In this document: one piece after another, positions 1 to 15,566 of the stretch
Layout: each line of letters starts with the position of its first letter
Numbering within the stretch: the stretch's first letter is position 1
IMG/VR virus record: IMGVR_UViG_3300048082_000027
Location: 1 to 31,906 of that record
Direction: 5' to 3' (one strand)
Length of the DNA: 31,906 nt
From: a virus
Lineage: Duplodnaviria; Caudoviricetes
Program-made: the position numbers and the translations under genes
Notes under the pieces: generated by a model
What the model was told of the DNA's origin: nothing
Seen by the model: the letters and a program-made list of their open reading frames with translations, nothing else
The model's database searches: none

Positions 1-1044
1 TTACTCCTTTTCACTCCCAATACTAAATAAATCTGTAATACCTTGTCTACTCTCCTTGTATAGGTGTCCATATCGGTTAATAGTCATTTTGATATCTGTA
101 TGTCCGACCAACCGACTTATTAAAAAGATATCTACGCCTTTATCGATTAACATTGAAACATACGAATGACGTAAATCGTGGAATGTAAACTTCCGTATAT
201 CAGCTTTATTTATGTAACGATATAACATTAAACGGTAACCAGTAATGGAATTGTACAAAGAACATCTATAATTTTCTTTTGTGGGGAACTCTAGCCAATT
301 AGGAATTGGAACTATCCGTTTAGAGTTTGGTGTTTTAAACTTATTGGATGATATTAACCTTTCTGTGATTCTTGTTTCCGATAAATGTAGTTCATTATCT
401 ATTACATCGCTATTTTTCAATCCCATCGCTTCACTGAAACGAAGTCCCGTGTAAAACAAAGTAGTTAGCAATAACTTAAACTCTTCATTATCTACCACCG
501 TCAAAAACTCTTTAAATTCTTTTTCGGTCAAAATAGTTATTTCTTTTTTTCTGTATTTTGTTTTATCTATGTACTTAAATGGATTATCTGCTTTTAGTTT
601 CTTTTTCACGCACCACCAAAAAAACGTACACAGGTCAGCTTCTAATTTATTTTTACTCTGGTCATTTAGTCCTGTTATTCCATTTTGCCATAAAGATACA
701 TCACTGTCAGTGATATTGTCTAATTTAACTTTATAAAATAAGCTATACTTTTTATAATTACTTTTCTTTAGCAACAAAGTATTGAAAGATAATTCTTGAT
801 TTTGTACTTTATTTGTCACCTCTTTTATATATAATTCGTAGGCTTCTTCAAAAGTCAGTGTTCTGTCTGATAGTTGCTTATAATTCAACCTTAATTCTGA
901 TACTTTAGCTCTTCCATCTTTTATAGATTTGGATGTAACGGTTTTTCTAATTCTTTTACCATTTAGATCATAACCAAGATTTACATCAAACTCATAACGT
1001 TTTTCACCATTTTTTAATGTTTTAGTTTTGTATTCTTTTGCCAT
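1..1044 (-). CDS. int: Tyrosine recombinase / phage integrase
   Basis: TGLRFSE (catalytic R), FHDLRHS (HxxR), LVGH and RYGHL (catalytic Y); N-terminal arm-binding-like domain; SD-like AAAGGGG upstream. Confidence 0.96.
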   Translation of the reverse strand: MAKEYKTKTLKNGEKRYEFDVNLGYDLNGKRIRKTVTSKSIKDGRAKVSELRLNYKQLSDRTLTFEEAYELYIKEVTNKVQNQELSFNTLLLKKSNYKKYSLFYKVKLDNITDSDVSLWQNGITGLNDQSKNKLEADLCTFFWWCVKKKLKADNPFKYIDKTKYRKKEITILTEKEFKEFLTVVDNEEFKLLLTTLFYTGLRFSEAMGLKNSDVIDNELHLSETRITERLISSNKFKTPNSKRIVPIPNWLEFPTKENYRCSLYNSITGYRLMLYRYINKADIRKFTFHDLRHSYVSMLIDKGVDIFLISRLVGHTDIKMTINRYGHLYKESRQGITDLFSIGSEKE

Positions 1045-1048
1045 ACCC

Positions 1049-1077
1049 TTGCCCCTTTTCTTTAAAATTGATATAAT
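1049..1077 (+). promoter_or_regulatory. Sigma-A promoter antisense to the cI-int transcript
   Basis: TTGCCC (1049-1054), 17-nt spacer, TATAAT (1072-1077) with extended -10 TG at 1069-1070; overlaps the integrase RBS. Confidence 0.75.
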
Positions 1078-1083
1078 AGGAGC

Positions 1084-1187
1084 ATAGTAAAAAAAGACTT
1101 AGCGTTAATATTTACTATGTTCCAAAATGATATTTGCCGATATCATTTACAACACTCCATTTGCCGATGGGGTGTTTTTTTATTTTT
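1084..1187 (+). ncRNA. Putative ~100-nt antisense sRNA with three hairpins, two with UUGCCG loops, ending in an intrinsic terminator
   Basis: Stems: GGAGCATAGTAAA/TTTACTATGTTCC (1079-1123); AAATGATAT-TTGCCG-ATATCATTT (1125-1148); AACACTCCAT-TTGCCG-ATGGGGTGTT (1151-1176) followed by a T-tract. Both mismatches are G-U wobbles on the + strand. Start site estimated from the -10. Confidence 0.7.
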
Positions 1188-1495
1188 TATTTTACTTTCC
1201 AATTAGAACCACAATTCTGACATACAGCAACCGTTTTGTACAAAGTTTTGTTAAATACGGTAGTTTTGCTACTCCCTACTTTGTTTTTTCTTCTAAAAAA
1301 CAACGATAGACCACCTGTCATCCCTATCTTAATAAGTTCAAAAATAAATTTCAAAGGAAATAATGACAATCTTATAATTATGTTTTGTCTCCTTTTTATT
1401 TTATAAGAGGTTTTGTTTCTCCCAATTGTAGCACTTGCCTCTCTTTCAAATGTGATGTTGCTACTTCCACAGTTTGCACAATGTATTTTATTCAT
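1187..1495 (-). CDS. Zn-ribbon (two CxxC) membrane-associated protein in the lysogeny module
   Basis: CANC near the N terminus and CQNC near the C terminus flank a hydrophobic segment. ATG at 1495 follows SD-like AGAGGGGTGG and is preferred over 1516. Confidence 0.75.
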   Translation of the reverse strand: MNKIHCANCGSSNITFEREASATIGRNKTSYKIKRRQNIIIRLSLFPLKFIFELIKIGMTGGLSLFFRRKNKVGSSKTTVFNKTLYKTVAVCQNCGSNWKVK

Positions 1496-1556
1496 TTTCC
1501 ACCCCTCTTTCTCCATACTTTTCTTTTTTATATAAACACTATATAAGTGTGTTTAC

Positions 1557-1994
1557 CTATTTATTTTCTTTTGGGTAAAGTTTAACTAGTTCTGTTAATC
1601 TATCATTAGCTAACTGTTTACCTTTATCATCACAATCAAGATAATTTTCCAGTAAATTATACGTATTTTCATCAAACCAACCTTTCACATCGTCAAGTGT
1701 TTTACGTTGCATATTTACTTTTTGTTGAGGTGTGGCGGAAGAATAAAATTCTTTTAACATTTCTTCTTTCCCTTTTTTATCCTCTACCAAATCAGATTTT
1801 TCTATTCCGAAATAATTAGCTAACAATTCTATTTTATCTATTCTTGGGTACTTCTTGGCATTGATCCATTCTGTAAAAGTTGAGTATTTTAAATCTAAAG
1901 CAGAACATACATCATTTCTAGTTTTATTTTGTTCGCGCATATATCTTTTTATGTTGTTAGCCATTATTTGTTTGTTACCTAAATTATTACTCAT
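1557..1994 (-). CDS. CI-like XRE/HTH repressor, no recognisable S24 peptidase domain
   Basis: HTH segment ...STFTEWINAKKYPRIDKIELLANYFGI; divergent from the cro-like gene; SD GAGGTGA. Confidence 0.9.
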   Translation of the reverse strand: MSNNLGNKQIMANNIKRYMREQNKTRNDVCSALDLKYSTFTEWINAKKYPRIDKIELLANYFGIEKSDLVEDKKGKEEMLKEFYSSATPQQKVNMQRKTLDDVKGWFDENTYNLLENYLDCDDKGKQLANDRLTELVKLYPKENK

Positions 1995-2015
1995 TTCTAA
2001 ATCACCTCTAAATAT

Positions 2016-2044
2016 ATAATATATTAAAAGTGTAAAAAAATCAA
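2016..2044 (-). promoter_or_regulatory. Leftward (repressor) promoter
   Basis: Minus strand TTGATT, 17 nt, TATTAT upstream of the repressor. Confidence 0.6.
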
Positions 2045-2094
2045 TGATATTTTAATTAATTACACTAAAAGCGTTGACATGACGCTTAAAGTGT
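2021..2094. promoter_or_regulatory. Operator cluster: 13-bp imperfect palindromes ACRCT-N3-AGYGT
   Basis: ACACTAAAAGCGT (2062-2074), ACGCTTAAAGTGT (2082-2094) and degenerate ATATTAAAAGTGT (2021-2033) overlap the two divergent promoters. Confidence 0.8.
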
Positions 2095-2102
2095 TATATC
2101 AT
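2074..2102 (+). promoter_or_regulatory. Rightward early lytic promoter
   Basis: TTGACA (2074-2079), 17 nt, TATCAT (2097-2102), with operators on both sides of the -35. Confidence 0.82.
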
Positions 2103-2125
2103 TGGGTTGCAAGGAGGTGATGAAT

Positions 2126-2353
2126 TTGGAAATGTACACTCTAAAAACAGCCAGGAATAAAAATGGTTTTAGTCAGCTAGAGGCTTCAAAACTAATAGGT
2201 ATAAGTAAGTATACACTATCAAACTATGAATGTGGTAAATCATTCCCTGATGTTCCGATTTTAAAAAAGATAGAAAAGGTGTACGGGGTGACGTATGAGC
2301 AACTTATTTTTTTAAACAACAATAACGCTAAAAGCGTAAAAGCTAATGGATAG
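2126..2353 (+). CDS. Cro/Mor-like HTH regulator
   Basis: XRE HTH (SQLEASKLIGISKYTLSNYECGKSFPD). SD AGGAGGTGA favours TTG 2126 or ATG 2132 over 2102. Confidence 0.88.
   Translation: MEMYTLKTARNKNGFSQLEASKLIGISKYTLSNYECGKSFPDVPILKKIEKVYGVTYEQLIFLNNNNAKSVKANG
2325..2337. promoter_or_regulatory. Distal operator inside the 3' end of cro
   Basis: ACGCTAAAAGCGT, with perfectly symmetric half-sites of the same 13-bp motif. Confidence 0.72.
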
Positions 2354-2397
2354 CACATGCACGGCAATGCGAATAACCACAGGAAGGGGTAAATAAA

Positions 2398-2580
2398 GTG
2401 TTAACGGCTAAAGACATACAAAAAATATTAAAAGTTGGAAATGATAAATCGTATGAGATTATTAATAAATTAAAGCGAAATAATAAACTCGAATATGACG
2501 AGGTTAGGATACCGAAAAGAATTATTAAAGAACACTATCATTTGAGTGATGAAGAAATCGAAGAAGCATTACAAAAATAA
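2398..2580 (+). CDS. Excisionase-like small HTH protein
   Basis: MLTAKDIQKILKVGNDKSYEIINKL resembles the Xis/HTH_17 pattern; position after cro. Confidence 0.65.
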   Translation: MLTAKDIQKILKVGNDKSYEIINKLKRNNKLEYDEVRIPKRIIKEHYHLSDEEIEEALQK

Positions 2581-2595
2581 ACAAAGGAGAAGAAC

Positions 2596-3273
2596 ATGAA
2601 CGAAATCAATATTGTAATAGAAAATAATCAAGTATTGGTTACTAGCAAAGAAGTGGCAAGAGATTTTAATAAGGAGCATAAACACGTTTTAAGAGATATT
2701 GATAGCTTTAAAAAAGATGTGTCCAATTTTGGACTGATGTTTCAAGAAACAAAATTACCTGATTCTTACGGCAGGAATCAAAGAGTGTACCTCATGAACC
2801 GAGATGGCTTTAGTTTACTGGCAATGGGGTTTACAGGAAAAGATGCATTAGAGTGGAAAGTTAAATATATTAATAAATTTAATGAATTGGAAAAGTTACA
2901 AGCGAATACGAATCTTGGTTATATCGTGCAACTACAATCTAACGTGCTAGAAATGCGTAAGGAAATACGCCAATTACAAAAAAAAGCAGATGTAAATAAA
3001 GAACTGCCTGTTGCACAAGAAGCTTTAGAATCAAGATTATATACAACTGAAGAAATTGCATCAGAAATGAATATTTCTTCCGCAAGAGCATTAAATAACA
3101 TCCTACGAGAAGCGGGGGTCCAGTATATGCAGAAAAAACACTGGAAATTATACGCTAAATATAAAAACAAAGGGCTTAAAGATATGTCTTCGTTGGCTCG
3201 CTCTCAAATGTGGACCGCTAAAGGTAAGCAGTTTGTACAAGAGCTATTAGAAGAGATGTACAGAAGTGAGTAA
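2596..3273 (+). CDS. Rha-family regulator fused to a KilA-C/ANT-like antirepressor domain
   Basis: N-terminal TSKEVARDFNKEHKHVLRDI...MNRDGFSLLAMGFTGKDALEWK (Rha); C-terminal YTTEEIA...LNNILREAGVQY...WTAKGKQF (KilA-C-like). Confidence 0.88.
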   Translation: MNEINIVIENNQVLVTSKEVARDFNKEHKHVLRDIDSFKKDVSNFGLMFQETKLPDSYGRNQRVYLMNRDGFSLLAMGFTGKDALEWKVKYINKFNELEKLQANTNLGYIVQLQSNVLEMRKEIRQLQKKADVNKELPVAQEALESRLYTTEEIASEMNISSARALNNILREAGVQYMQKKHWKLYAKYKNKGLKDMSSLARSQMWTAKGKQFVQELLEEMYRSE

Positions 3274-3278
3274 TATCT

Positions 3279-3440
3279 ATGCCAGAGAATAAAGAGTTAC
3301 TTGAATACACAGCGATGGTCATTAAGGTATTTATGGATTTAGAGTTAATTAATGAGGAAACCACGGTAAAGGAATTAGCATTAGTTATTGATGAGTCTTG
3401 GTTAATCGCAGATGCTAACCAAAAGGTAATTAAAAATTAA
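3279..3440 (+). CDS. Hypothetical protein, 53 aa (not in the ORF track)
   Basis: Hand-translated MPENKELLEY...QKVIKN; fills the operon gap; weak SD. Confidence 0.55.
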   Translation: MPENKELLEYTAMVIKVFMDLELINEETTVKELALVIDESWLIADANQKVIKN

Positions 3441-3456
3441 GAAAGGGATAATACAT

Positions 3457-3615
3457 ATGGAAAATAAAACAACAATTGATGTTTTAATTCAAATTCTTAC
3501 AAAGCGTATCAACGACTCTTTGGGAGATGCAAGTTATTTGCCGGTTAATACAGCAGAATTGGTAAATGCCCTAGCGAATTTGATAGAGGCTAGAGCCGAA
3601 ATTGAAAGAGGTTAA
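3457..3615 (+). CDS. Hypothetical protein, 52 aa (not in the ORF track)
   Basis: MENKTTIDVLIQ...EIERG; SD AAAGGGA. Confidence 0.7.
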   Translation: MENKTTIDVLIQILTKRINDSLGDASYLPVNTAELVNALANLIEARAEIERG

Positions 3616-3638
3616 TCATTAAAGAAAGGAGAAACCGC

Positions 3639-3716
3639 ATGCCAGCATTAATAGTAACAGTAGTCGCATTAGTAGTATCAATAGCAAACTTAACATGTTG
3701 TTTGTTTAGAGATTAA
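3639..3716 (+). CDS. 25-aa single-TM peptide (not in the ORF track)
   Basis: MPALIVTVVALVVSIANLTCCLFRD; strong SD AAAGGAG. Confidence 0.65.
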   Translation: MPALIVTVVALVVSIANLTCCLFRD

Positions 3717-3732
3717 AAGGAGGAGAAACAAA

Positions 3733-4020
3733 ATGAAATACACATTAGAGGATTTTAAAAACAATAAAATTGCAGTATGGGTAAGAAATGAAGTAGAGTA
3801 TGGTCAGTTTTGTATTTTTGCAAGAGGTATGGAGTGGCAGGACGGGGAGCTTGTACATGAGTACACACCAATTTTCCCTTGTGAGATAGCTGTCGGTTTT
3901 AGGCATTACGATAATTGCACGATGACGTTTGACGATATAAAAGGATTTCATTCCCAAGGAAGTCCATTTATATATAAACCAGTAACGGTAGATGAATTAA
4001 AAATAAGCAGTGGAAAATAA
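3733..4020 (+). CDS. Phage hypothetical protein
   Basis: Strong SD AGGAGG; 95-aa ORF. Confidence 0.75.
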   Translation: MKYTLEDFKNNKIAVWVRNEVEYGQFCIFARGMEWQDGELVHEYTPIFPCEIAVGFRHYDNCTMTFDDIKGFHSQGSPFIYKPVTVDELKISSGK

Positions 4021-4064
4021 AAAAAAATCACCTACGGCAATAGGTGACTAAGAGAAAATAAATC
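4019..4064 (-). ncRNA. Putative ~45-nt OOP-like antisense sRNA with a UUGCCG-loop terminator hairpin
   Basis: TCACCTA-CGGCAA-TAGGTGA (4028-4047) preceded by A9 (4019-4027) forms a hairpin plus U-tract on the minus strand, directly downstream of a consensus minus-strand promoter. Confidence 0.72.
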
Positions 4065-4070
4065 AATTAA

Positions 4071-4099
4071 ATTATACATCACAAAAAAGGAGATGTCAA
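4071..4099 (-). promoter_or_regulatory. Perfect-consensus sigma-A antisense promoter
   Basis: Minus strand TTGACA (4099-4094), 17 nt, TATAAT (4076-4071). Confidence 0.82.
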
Positions 4100-4101
4100 A
4101 A

Positions 4102-4299
4102 ATGACAGATTTTGAAAAACAACAGGAGTATATAAAATATCTAATCAAGGTCCACGAAGCTAGTCTAGAAATTGCTACCTCTGTAGCAGATAAAGCACAT
4201 CATTCCAGAAGAATAATTGCACTTAGAGAACAGTTAGAAAATAATCAATTGTACGTTAGAGCGTACGAGAAAGACTTAAAAGGAGCGCACGGAAAATGA
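4102..4299 (+). CDS. Hypothetical protein
   Basis: SD AAGGAG spacing favours ATG 4102 over 4093. Confidence 0.7.
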   Translation: MTDFEKQQEYIKYLIKVHEASLEIATSVADKAHHSRRIIALREQLENNQLYVRAYEKDLKGAHGK

Positions 4300-4469
4300 A
4301 AAAGCTAATTAAACAATGGCGCTATGAAATTGTAATGGTATTATTCGTACTCTTATTAATGTCTACCATAAGAGGTTGGGTAGCAGCAAAGGCATATGAA
4401 ACTAATTACCGTATGTGTCAGTCAAACGTTGAGGAGATTAGAGAGCTTTATAATAATAAAAATAATTAG
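4296..4469 (+). CDS. 57-aa protein with an N-terminal TM helix (not in the ORF track)
   Basis: MKKLIKQWRYEIVMVLFVLLLMSTIRGW...; ATGA overlap with the upstream gene. Confidence 0.7.
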   Translation: MKKLIKQWRYEIVMVLFVLLLMSTIRGWVAAKAYETNYRMCQSNVEEIRELYNNKNN

Positions 4470-13426: not shown

Positions 13427-13429
13427 AGA

Positions 13430-13588
13430 ATGGATATAATTGCAGTTTTGTTTGTGATAGTAACGTTTACTTTATGGTTTGGACTCATTCGTCTCACTAT
13501 TAGGGGACATACACGCTTAAATAACATTGTGATGACCATAGGCATATTACTTCAGATTATATTACTTATTTTATTGATTTGGTTTTAA
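13430..13588 (+). CDS. 52-aa two-TM protein (not in the ORF track)
   Basis: MDIIAVLFVIVTFTLWFGLI...GILLQIILLILLIWF. Confidence 0.65.
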   Translation: MDIIAVLFVIVTFTLWFGLIRLTIRGHTRLNNIVMTIGILLQIILLILLIWF

Positions 13589-13603
13589 AGGAGGAATGAC
13601 GTT

Positions 13604-13917: not shown

Positions 13918-14025
13918 ATGTACATTAATTTATTTTGGATAGGAGTAGCAGCGACAATCATGTTTGAGATAGGGTTGGTATTTCTTGCGGTAGGTATTAG
14001 TTATGTTAAAGGAAAGGTTAAATAG
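13918..14025 (+). CDS. 35-aa single-TM peptide (not in the ORF track)
   Basis: MYINLFWIGVAATIMFEIGLVFLAVGISYVKGKVK; SD AGGAGG. Confidence 0.7.
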   Translation: MYINLFWIGVAATIMFEIGLVFLAVGISYVKGKVK

Positions 14026-14035
14026 GGTGATAAGT

Positions 14036-14759: not shown

Positions 14760-14964
14760 ACTTCAACAATGCCCATTTTGTGGGTGCAAAGTACATAATA
14801 GATTTGCCGTCAAAGGCATGTTCACAGTTATATGCAGTGGTGACGATTGCGGAGCAGTGGTATCATTCTTGGACACACATAAAAAGTCAGCTGTAGCTAG
14901 TAAATATAACAAAAGATATACGGGCGAAGAACCATCGTTTAAGAGGTCAATTAATGATGAGTAG
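14746..14964 (+). CDS. Lar-like (restriction alleviation family) Zn-finger protein
   Basis: LQQCPFCG...VICSGDDCGA...KYNKR. Confidence 0.68.
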   Translation: MQKDKLQQCPFCGCKVHNRFAVKGMFTVICSGDDCGAVVSFLDTHKKSAVASKYNKRYTGEEPSFKRSINDE

Positions 14965-15394
14965 GGCGAAACAGGATCTGCAGGATTGGGCAGGATGGAA
15001 ACGGACAGTTAGTTTACTGCAAGAAACCAAAGCACTAATACAAAACACAACACTTGGTATTCGTTACGATACTGATGATATGCCGGGTGGGAACCATCAA
15101 TCAATACATCAAAAGATGGCAAGAATAATCGAGGAAGTAGAAAAATATGATCACGTGATTGGTCAGTATGAATTTTTGATCAATAGGTTAGAGTCAGGTA
15201 TAAATACGTTGTTAACAAAAGATGAGAAAGAGGTAGTGATTATATACGCAAACAATCAAACATCTGAAAAGAGAGAGGTAGAGGCATTAGTTAAGGGTTA
15301 TTCCCGAGCATCGTATTATAGGATACTGGATATAGCTATTGATAAACTGGATAAAGTATTACAACCCCTTGATACTAAATTGATACTAAAATAG
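14954..15394 (+). CDS. Late transcriptional activator, RinA/ArpU-like
   Basis: Last gene before the terminase; C-terminal sigma-region-4-like HTH (LTKDEKEVV...GYSRASYYRILDIAIDKL). Confidence 0.72.
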   Translation: MMSRAKQDLQDWAGWKRTVSLLQETKALIQNTTLGIRYDTDDMPGGNHQSIHQKMARIIEEVEKYDHVIGQYEFLINRLESGINTLLTKDEKEVVIIYANNQTSEKREVEALVKGYSRASYYRILDIAIDKLDKVLQPLDTKLILK

Positions 15395-15413
15395 CCTTAT
15401 TTAATGATAAAAT
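15369..15413 (+). promoter_or_regulatory. Late promoter: tandem 11-bp activator sites plus extended -10
   Basis: TTGATACTAAA twice (15369-15390) and TGATAAAAT (15405-15413). Confidence 0.72.
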
Positions 15414-15455
15414 GTTAATATAGAGTTTTTGGGCAAAGGCTCTACAACAACATTT

Positions 15456-15490
15456 AAAAAAGGACATTCAATACGAGTGTCTTTTTTGTT
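15456..15490 (+). terminator. Intrinsic terminator-like hairpin, possibly bidirectional
   Basis: AAAAAAGGACATTC-AATAC-GAGTGTCTTTTTT. Confidence 0.7.
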
Positions 15491-15566
15491 TTACACAGCG
15501 GTATTGGTTTGTTCTCCTTCTCCAGTATCGCTCTGTAAGATATAAACTAAGAAAGGAGTGGAGTTG

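Follow-up and report, generated by a model that had tools for sequence, protein, structure and literature searches.

Predicted plasmid-type countertranscript control at the integrase gene and at an early lytic gene of a temperate phage, with co-varying twin loops in the integrase cassette

Antisense RNAs against prophage integrase genes (int) are already known from Streptococcus pyogenes and Lactococcus lactis. In S. pyogenes, mapped transcription starts place such RNAs upstream of four prophage integrases (SP119_SR034/071/086/106; PMC6431027), and all six prophages of L. lactis MG1363 have antisense RNAs against int (PMC4829306). Our statements on these and the other published systems extend to excerpts of the papers cited, and the excerpts of these two give no mechanism beyond a proposed silencing. 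Here, we analysed a 31.9-kb temperate phage record from IMG/VR (IMGVR_UViG_3300048082_000027; all 31,906 nucleotides, hereafter the window), in which int is preceded by a cassette of one opposing promoter and three hairpins (H3, H2 and H1), while a shorter cassette lies among the early lytic genes, just before an open reading frame (ORF) that starts at position 4102. We consider it probable that these are two separate, local cis-antisense cassettes, the one at int working by a switch in which an anti-Shine-Dalgarno (anti-SD) segment captures the Shine-Dalgarno sequence (SD), and the lytic one resembling RNAII of plasmid pMV158. The window phage is predicted to use plasmid-type countertranscript control twice, locally, and with a robust twin-loop rule.

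Like the S. pyogenes RNAs, which are 82-89 nt long with an extended -10 and a -35 at 17 bp, the predicted int RNA lies upstream of int on the opposite strand and has a similarly built promoter. In S. pyogenes prophages 315.1 and 315.4, as in the window, the -35 overlies the ribosome-binding site (RBS) and start region, and a terminator closes the RNA; its loop there contains CGCCAA or CGACCAA. The S. pyogenes RNAs differ in having two main hairpins with the CGCCAA-type word on the antisense side, whereas the window has three hairpins with twin loops. ColE1 RNA I (RF00106) shares with the int RNA an A-run, a terminator hairpin, a second hairpin with an identical loop and a third hairpin, and the layout described for it (three stem-loops, ~100 nt, kissing-type loops; PMC8683028) is found in the predicted int RNA. 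RNA I, however, controls a replication primer rather than a gene, and the RF00106 model gave no match at E ≤ 1 on the window or the compared phage loci. The RNAI of pSK41 (PMC5703833) is likewise complementary to the leader rather than to the RBS and induces an RBS-hiding stem, but its target is a plasmid rep gene and it has two stem-loops. Unlike the window, pT181 and pIP501 work by transcription attenuation, the induced stem being followed by a U run before the gene. The Rfam model ctRNA_pND324 (RF00238) scored 35.7 bits at 1069-1152 (E 0.0062), against a cut-off of 45, and was sub-threshold also in three homologues; the int RNA is therefore not a member of that family. Neither matched loops nor an anti-SD switch at phage integrases was found in a literature search that most subscription papers lay outside. 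What is new here is that the H1 and H2 loops of the int cassette co-vary across related phages.

The initial annotation had described four intergenic hairpins with the same loop, two of the loci having an opposing promoter whose -35 falls at the start of the next gene and with a U-tract. Three hairpins stand: those at 1125-1148 (H2), 1151-1176 (H1) and 4026-4049 all carry the loop TTGCCG/CGGCAA, and the fold z-scores of their regions against shuffles are -4.64 and -5.27 (the latter for the unit 4018-4064). The fourth, at 2358-2371, was rejected as a stable hairpin, with 3-4 pairs, z of +0.87/-0.86 and pair probabilities of 0.05-0.15. No opposing promoter or T-run was called there, and nothing similar follows cro in L420, the nearest cro homologue (L-numbers denote homologous loci or phages compared with the window). 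The CGGCAA/TTGCCG hexamer is not enriched in the window (11 occurrences, 8.6 expected). Hairpins with this loop and stems of at least 7 bp number three in the window, whereas 200 shuffles average 0.01; when the post hoc choice of loop is corrected for by accepting any loop common to three hairpins, 3 of 60 shuffles qualify at stems of at least 7 bp and 0 of 300 at stems of at least 9 bp. Both opposing promoters were found (+1049-1077, 10/12 with TG; -4099-4071, 12/12), their -35 elements are positioned at the RBS/start of int and ORF 4102, and T-runs follow 1151-1176 and 4026-4049. The arrangement of a countertranscript RNA, an opposing promoter and a terminator inside the target leader, is therefore present. 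The annotation had missed two elements of the int cassette, H3 (found at the same position in homologues) and the anti-SD.

Conservation across homologues is in line with this anatomy. A -35 starting with TTG occurs at a spacing of 17 or 18 bp in 16 and 11, respectively, of 52 int-type elements, and in none at offsets -3 to -1 or +2. The H2 stem is Watson-Crick at 220 of 222 positions in 37 homologues, a count in which detection favours good stems. The G-U pairs of H1 in 37 homologues number 38 on the antisense strand and 2 on the sense strand, and this bias suggests an RNA that folds on the antisense strand. Among 401 genomes of the order Erysipelotrichales, 35 contain the leader pattern, not all of them as such elements, compared with 2 for a reversed control. 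Promoters, terminators and strand bias together support the original proposal of cis-antisense RNAs with kissing-type loops, as predicted RNAs.

Some variants of the cassette were also noticed. A second int-leader subfamily (L254, L263-L265, L492, L524, L529, L544 and others) has an extra SD-hiding hairpin followed by a T-run; this hairpin resembles stem-loop IV of pT181, and its 5' arm is a possible pairing partner for the segment adjoining the -10. In L554 and in L572/L586, a single-hairpin version precedes a 45-aa ORF that is not an integrase, the loop being inverted between near-identical copies. In the window itself, the H1 stem (1146-1182, plus strand) is similar to the SpF11 terminator in Rfam (26 bits, E 0.48).

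The loops of H1 and H2 are identical in 16 of 24 distinct homologue pairs (L500 and L572, with mis-called H2, were left out), against a permutation mean of 2.7 and a maximum of 10 in 100,000. Within H2-stem families, a comparison that controls relatedness only partly, the count is 16 against 8.3 expected (p = 3e-5). In a second set, taken from genomes, the loops agree in 9 of 11 cases (8 of 11 as computed, with L625 added after inspection showed its loops to be identical). Ten loop sequences occur as matched H1/H2 pairs; half of the 16 matched pairs share 0 flanking bases and some others 1-3, and in L492/L573 and L499/L641 both int loops are inverted together within near-identical stems. This covariation points to selection holding the two int loops equal. 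The initial idea of selection on the loop thus applies between the two int hairpins only and fails for the match between int and lytic loops. The int loops are most likely kept equal because either can start the kiss, and we favour such either-loop nucleation, which would make binding faster, over a protein dimer or gene conversion.

That CGGCAA/UUGCCG recurs is probably explained by its belonging to a small shared stock of kissing-type loops. The loop of CopA/CopT is a kissing loop, and rUUGGCG was reportedly described by Asano in 1998. Seven ColE1-family plasmids have CTACCAA, CTGCAA or CGGCAA as terminator loop, and the lambda t0/OOP loop, which the initial annotation had given as UUGCCG, is indeed TTGCCG (lambda 38613). 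Read against the YUNR motif (PMC4485353), H1 and H2 give U-UUG when the closing base is included, and the loop at 4035 gives A-UUG (UNR only), as read from sequence.

The predicted int antisense RNA does not cover the int SD, and the anti-SD, formed by the seven bases that separate the antisense -10 from the start predicted for the RNA, lies largely outside it. In the int mRNA the anti-SD has two alternative partners, the extended H3 or the SD. When the antisense RNA was modelled as bound, the anti-SD:SD pairing probability in the window rose from ~0.6 to ~1.0; over 45 leaders, a set that leaves out those without a called SD (at least 7), SD accessibility was lower in 23, higher in 4 and unchanged in 18. 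At the flanks of the anti-SD/SD helix, 77 of 150 cells are paired, against 62.8 in permutations uncorrected for relatedness (p = 5.5e-4); between anti-SD and SD, 73% are paired, against 38-53% when slid. One flank position shows G-C, A-U and C-G alternatives. Five mis-called elements were excluded before the accessibility, flank covariation and spacing analyses, and for the flank covariation 15 second-subfamily loci and 2 loci lacking an anchor were dropped as well. The window leader has neither a U run after the anti-SD:SD stem nor a sense-strand terminator (some homologues have a U run), so translation, not termination, is the predicted target in the window.

We propose that the leftward cI transcript likely continues into int; no minus-strand terminator was called between the two in the window, which would make them a read-through operon. 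During mRNA synthesis, H3 would fold first and hold the anti-SD, leaving the ribosome site open. The antisense RNA would then probably dock through its two equal UUGCCG loops and unzip H1-H3, and the released anti-SD (1084-1078) would pair with the SD and stop int translation. By analogy with plasmid control, a new infection might see a burst of integrase before the antisense RNA accumulates, and in the lysogen int could stay low while cI is expressed.

The RNA predicted from the lytic cassette resembles pMV158 RNAII (PMC4485353) in length (47 versus 48 nt) and in consisting of an AU-rich 5' tail and a terminator, and the cassette sits, as in pMV158, within an operon, just upstream of where translation begins, and its promoter is placed at the beginning of the target gene. 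RNAII differs in that it targets repB, is without a U-turn and does not need kissing, whereas the lytic RNA faces a phage early gene and has a kissing-type loop. [quoted passage not shown] As with RNAII, the ~47-nt RNA likely damps leaky expression of the next early genes, and the cassette probably serves to hold down early or harmful genes that leak in the lysogen. TTGACA at 17 bp is present in 8 of 15 homologous lytic cassettes despite differing stems and downstream genes, and G-U pairs in 44 lytic-type cassettes number 39 on the antisense strand and 2 on the sense strand. The L001 cassette is 93% identical to that of the window, but its loop is CGCCAA, and it abuts the homologue of the 4296 ORF directly. 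A small gene with a hydrophobic stretch is faced by 9 of 13 lytic cassettes (chosen for a TTG -35); in the window this is the second gene, 4296. In IMG/VR, the pattern of A-run, CGGCAA and -10 occurs in an estimated ~920 stretches, and a stem of at least 7 bp is present in 40 of 75 distinct examples; when the loop was left free, 23 of 80 strong terminal hairpins had TT..G loops, TTGCCG being the commonest.

Three further observations concern what such cassettes face. In L253, L254, L257, L261, L268, L332, L333, L653 and L655, as at 4296-4469 in the window, it is often a hydrophobic ORF of 30-80 aa, as it would be for an antitoxin RNA. The cassette of L666 faces an xis-like-looking helix-turn-helix (HTH) gene. 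Before late-regulator-like genes, which we take to be ArpU/RinA, the cassette recurs as a large class of its own (L131-L251), with loops such as GAGAG, GCGA and CGTGT.

Several results weigh against two local cassettes with an anti-SD switch at int. The Rfam scan proposed initially brought no family to its curated cut-off in the window, matches to SpF11, PyrR and hammerhead were weak, and many more distant integrases are without the int-cassette layout. The 18 leaders without a predicted change include the subfamily with the second SD-hiding hairpin. The free window leader is ~60% SD-hidden at equilibrium, the SD-hidden form being its minimum-energy fold, so that the ON state hinges on folding order. 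The anti-SD core was itself a component of the pattern searched with, and its conservation may be that of a promoter sequence; removal of upstream partners by itself tends to raise downstream pairing. The permutation tests are uncorrected for the relatedness of homologues; in the seven ColE1-family plasmids above the loops do not co-vary, the second staying constant while the terminator loop varies; and loop kissing is dispensable in pMV158 (PMC4485353).

The missing change in those 18 of 45 leaders would be expected if the same cassettes repressed by being transcribed against their targets, with collision or an occupied promoter across the RBS region, or through RNase III cleavage of the duplex instead of an anti-SD switch. 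Strong consensus promoters on the RBS, the high stability of the full cis duplexes and the action of lambda OOP via RNase III (a title cited in PMC7067206) speak for such a mechanism. Interference alone would leave unexplained the perfect H2 on both strands, the matched loops and the anti-SD covariation, and we think it unlikely, if worth some weight. The loops might instead be matched through local duplication or template switching in plain terminators that have no regulatory role; some matched pairs do share 1-3 flanking bases, and single-loop inversions show that these hairpins mutate readily. Yet H2 stems are inherited while the loops track H1 (the stratified p = 3e-5), and each terminator has a conserved promoter of its own 45-100 nt upstream, which makes this extremely unlikely. 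Identity confined to the loop, with unrelated stems and with 0 shared flanking bases in 8 of 16 matched pairs, would also fit a dimeric phage or host protein that binds the two equal loops in the manner of boxB or CsrA and co-evolves with them. In boxB/nut hairpins, neither the loop sequence nor its orientation on the nascent transcript varies. In homologues, by contrast, the loops flip orientation while promoter and T-run stay put, and at least 10 loop states occur, which argues against the boxB/nut-like site once suggested for the window; the same loops are present, moreover, in ColE1-family antisense systems. We hold binding by such a dimer to be very unlikely.

The phage-wide circuit put forward in the initial annotation, in which the RNAs also kiss the xis-like leader and the lytic cassette mRNA in trans and so, in this lineage at least, tie int to transcription of the early lytic genes, draws on the match of all window loops and on the L257 lineage, which also has matching int and lytic loops. 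In L411, the closest relative, a 6-bp hairpin on the minus strand (~1380-1350) abuts the SD of the xis homologue and carries CCGCAA, its own int H2 loop; L411 differs from the window by the same one base at both sites. No antisense promoter was seen behind this hairpin, and since no further xis homologues with DNA context were found, the lead rests on two phages. Across phages, however, int and lytic loops match in only 2 of 15 (permutation mean 0.93, p = 0.23; three spurious lytic calls had been removed) and in 0 of 7 more. CGGCAA occurs in 5 of 8 lytic cassette calls from these seven whatever the int loop, and L001 and L253 combine the lytic loop CGCCAA with int loops CTGGCAA and CTTGCAA. 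Hairpins with the phage's own loop were found in 1 of 16 cases versus 0.68 with swapped loops, and 9 of 11 xis-like genes are without the site. Pairing in trans covers only 6-9 bp, with a predicted gain of 6-7 kcal/mol against 56-118 in cis by a folding model that does not score kissing loops. Repeated targets that track the RNA loops, as in P1 C4 and P4 CI, were seen in the window, L411 and the L257 lineage as exceptions, and Rfam scans of the window gave no C4 RNA match. A circuit of this kind is quite improbable, and we are equally sceptical of its fuller form, an all-RNA integration/excision switch in which the twin loops would be a specificity code, the int RNA of the window and L411 lineage would repress int in cis and, in trans, the xis-like leader, and early lytic mRNA bearing that loop too would soak the RNA up on induction.

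Two separate cassettes acting locally, the int one by an anti-SD switch, would bear on a question for which the literature searched offered no explanation, namely how temperate Firmicute phages keep int low alongside a repressor on the same transcript. The int locus offers a concrete, testable mechanism, an anti-SD switch worked by an RNA with the shape of RNA I, and it displays a strong constraint under which its two loops have to be equal and which is seen in at least 10 natural versions. These versions are a ready test of two-loop antisense recognition and could perhaps be turned into orthogonal RNA switches in Gram-positive hosts.

Table 1 Coordinates of the cassettes and neighbouring features in the window.
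Feature	Position	Strand	Remarks
Tyrosine integrase, int	1..1044	-	phrog_1 E 6e-55; PF00589; predicted target of the int antisense RNA
Antisense sigma-A-type promoter	1049..1077	+	-35 1049-1054 on int RBS, TG 1069-1070, -10 1072-1077; 10/12, extended -10
int SD region	1050..1056	-	Sequence; pairs with anti-SD
Anti-SD in int leader	1078..1084	-	7-bp pairing with SD
H3, long 5' hairpin	1083..1119	.	mRNA form can extend to 1079-1123, holding anti-SD
Predicted ~100-nt three-hairpin antisense RNA	1084..1184	+	Order H3-H2-H1-U run; fold z -4.28
H2, perfect palindrome	1125..1148	.	9 Watson-Crick pairs; loop TTGCCG/CGGCAA; folds on both strands
H1, terminator hairpin (1151-1176) then T-run	1151..1188	+	10 pairs; G-U only on + strand; loop as in H2
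Zn-ribbon-like ORF (1187-1516) and cI-like repressor (1557-1994)	1187..1994	-	Likely origin of read-through mRNA entering int
CGGCAA site between cro and xis-like gene	2358..2371	+	Weak 3-4 bp stem; possible trans target only
Small HTH, xis-like	2398..2580	+	phrog_989, unknown function; putative xis label from position
Predicted ~47-nt antisense RNA	4018..4064	-	AU-rich 5' tail, terminator 4049-4026 (9 pairs), UUGCCG loop, U run; z -5.27
Consensus antisense promoter	4071..4099	-	12/12; -35 between the ORF 4102 start codon and its SD
ORF 4102-4299; ORF 4296-4469 (small, membrane-type), which overlaps it	4102..4469	+	Predicted lytic-cassette targets; no family

The early genes of the window also include cro and a Rha/Ant gene, and relatives of the xis-like protein match HTH_17 below the cut-off. 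The nearest integrases in named genomes come from Beduini massiliensis, an Erysipelotrichaceae metagenome-assembled genome and one genome labelled Clostridiaceae; these three fall in one draw of genomes from a single order, which points to an Erysipelotrichales host. Among the 401 genomes of that order, a search for closer integrase relatives gave no match above E 1e-60 other than these three, and blastn of the window against INPHARED gave only pieces of cI and Rha among the matches listed. Four related imperfect palindromes of 13 bp each (2021, 2062, 2082 and 2325), around the cI/cro promoters and the end of cro, are likely repressor operators; the cro homologue in L420 retains the last of them. 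Further downstream, three strong hairpins on the plus strand (15390-15560, -52 kcal/mol) between ORF 14954-15394 and a terminase small subunit-like ORF could form a late leader. Very short hydrophobic frames with good RBSs lie between early genes at 3639-3716, 13428-13590 and 13918-14030, the first of which is conserved in L001.

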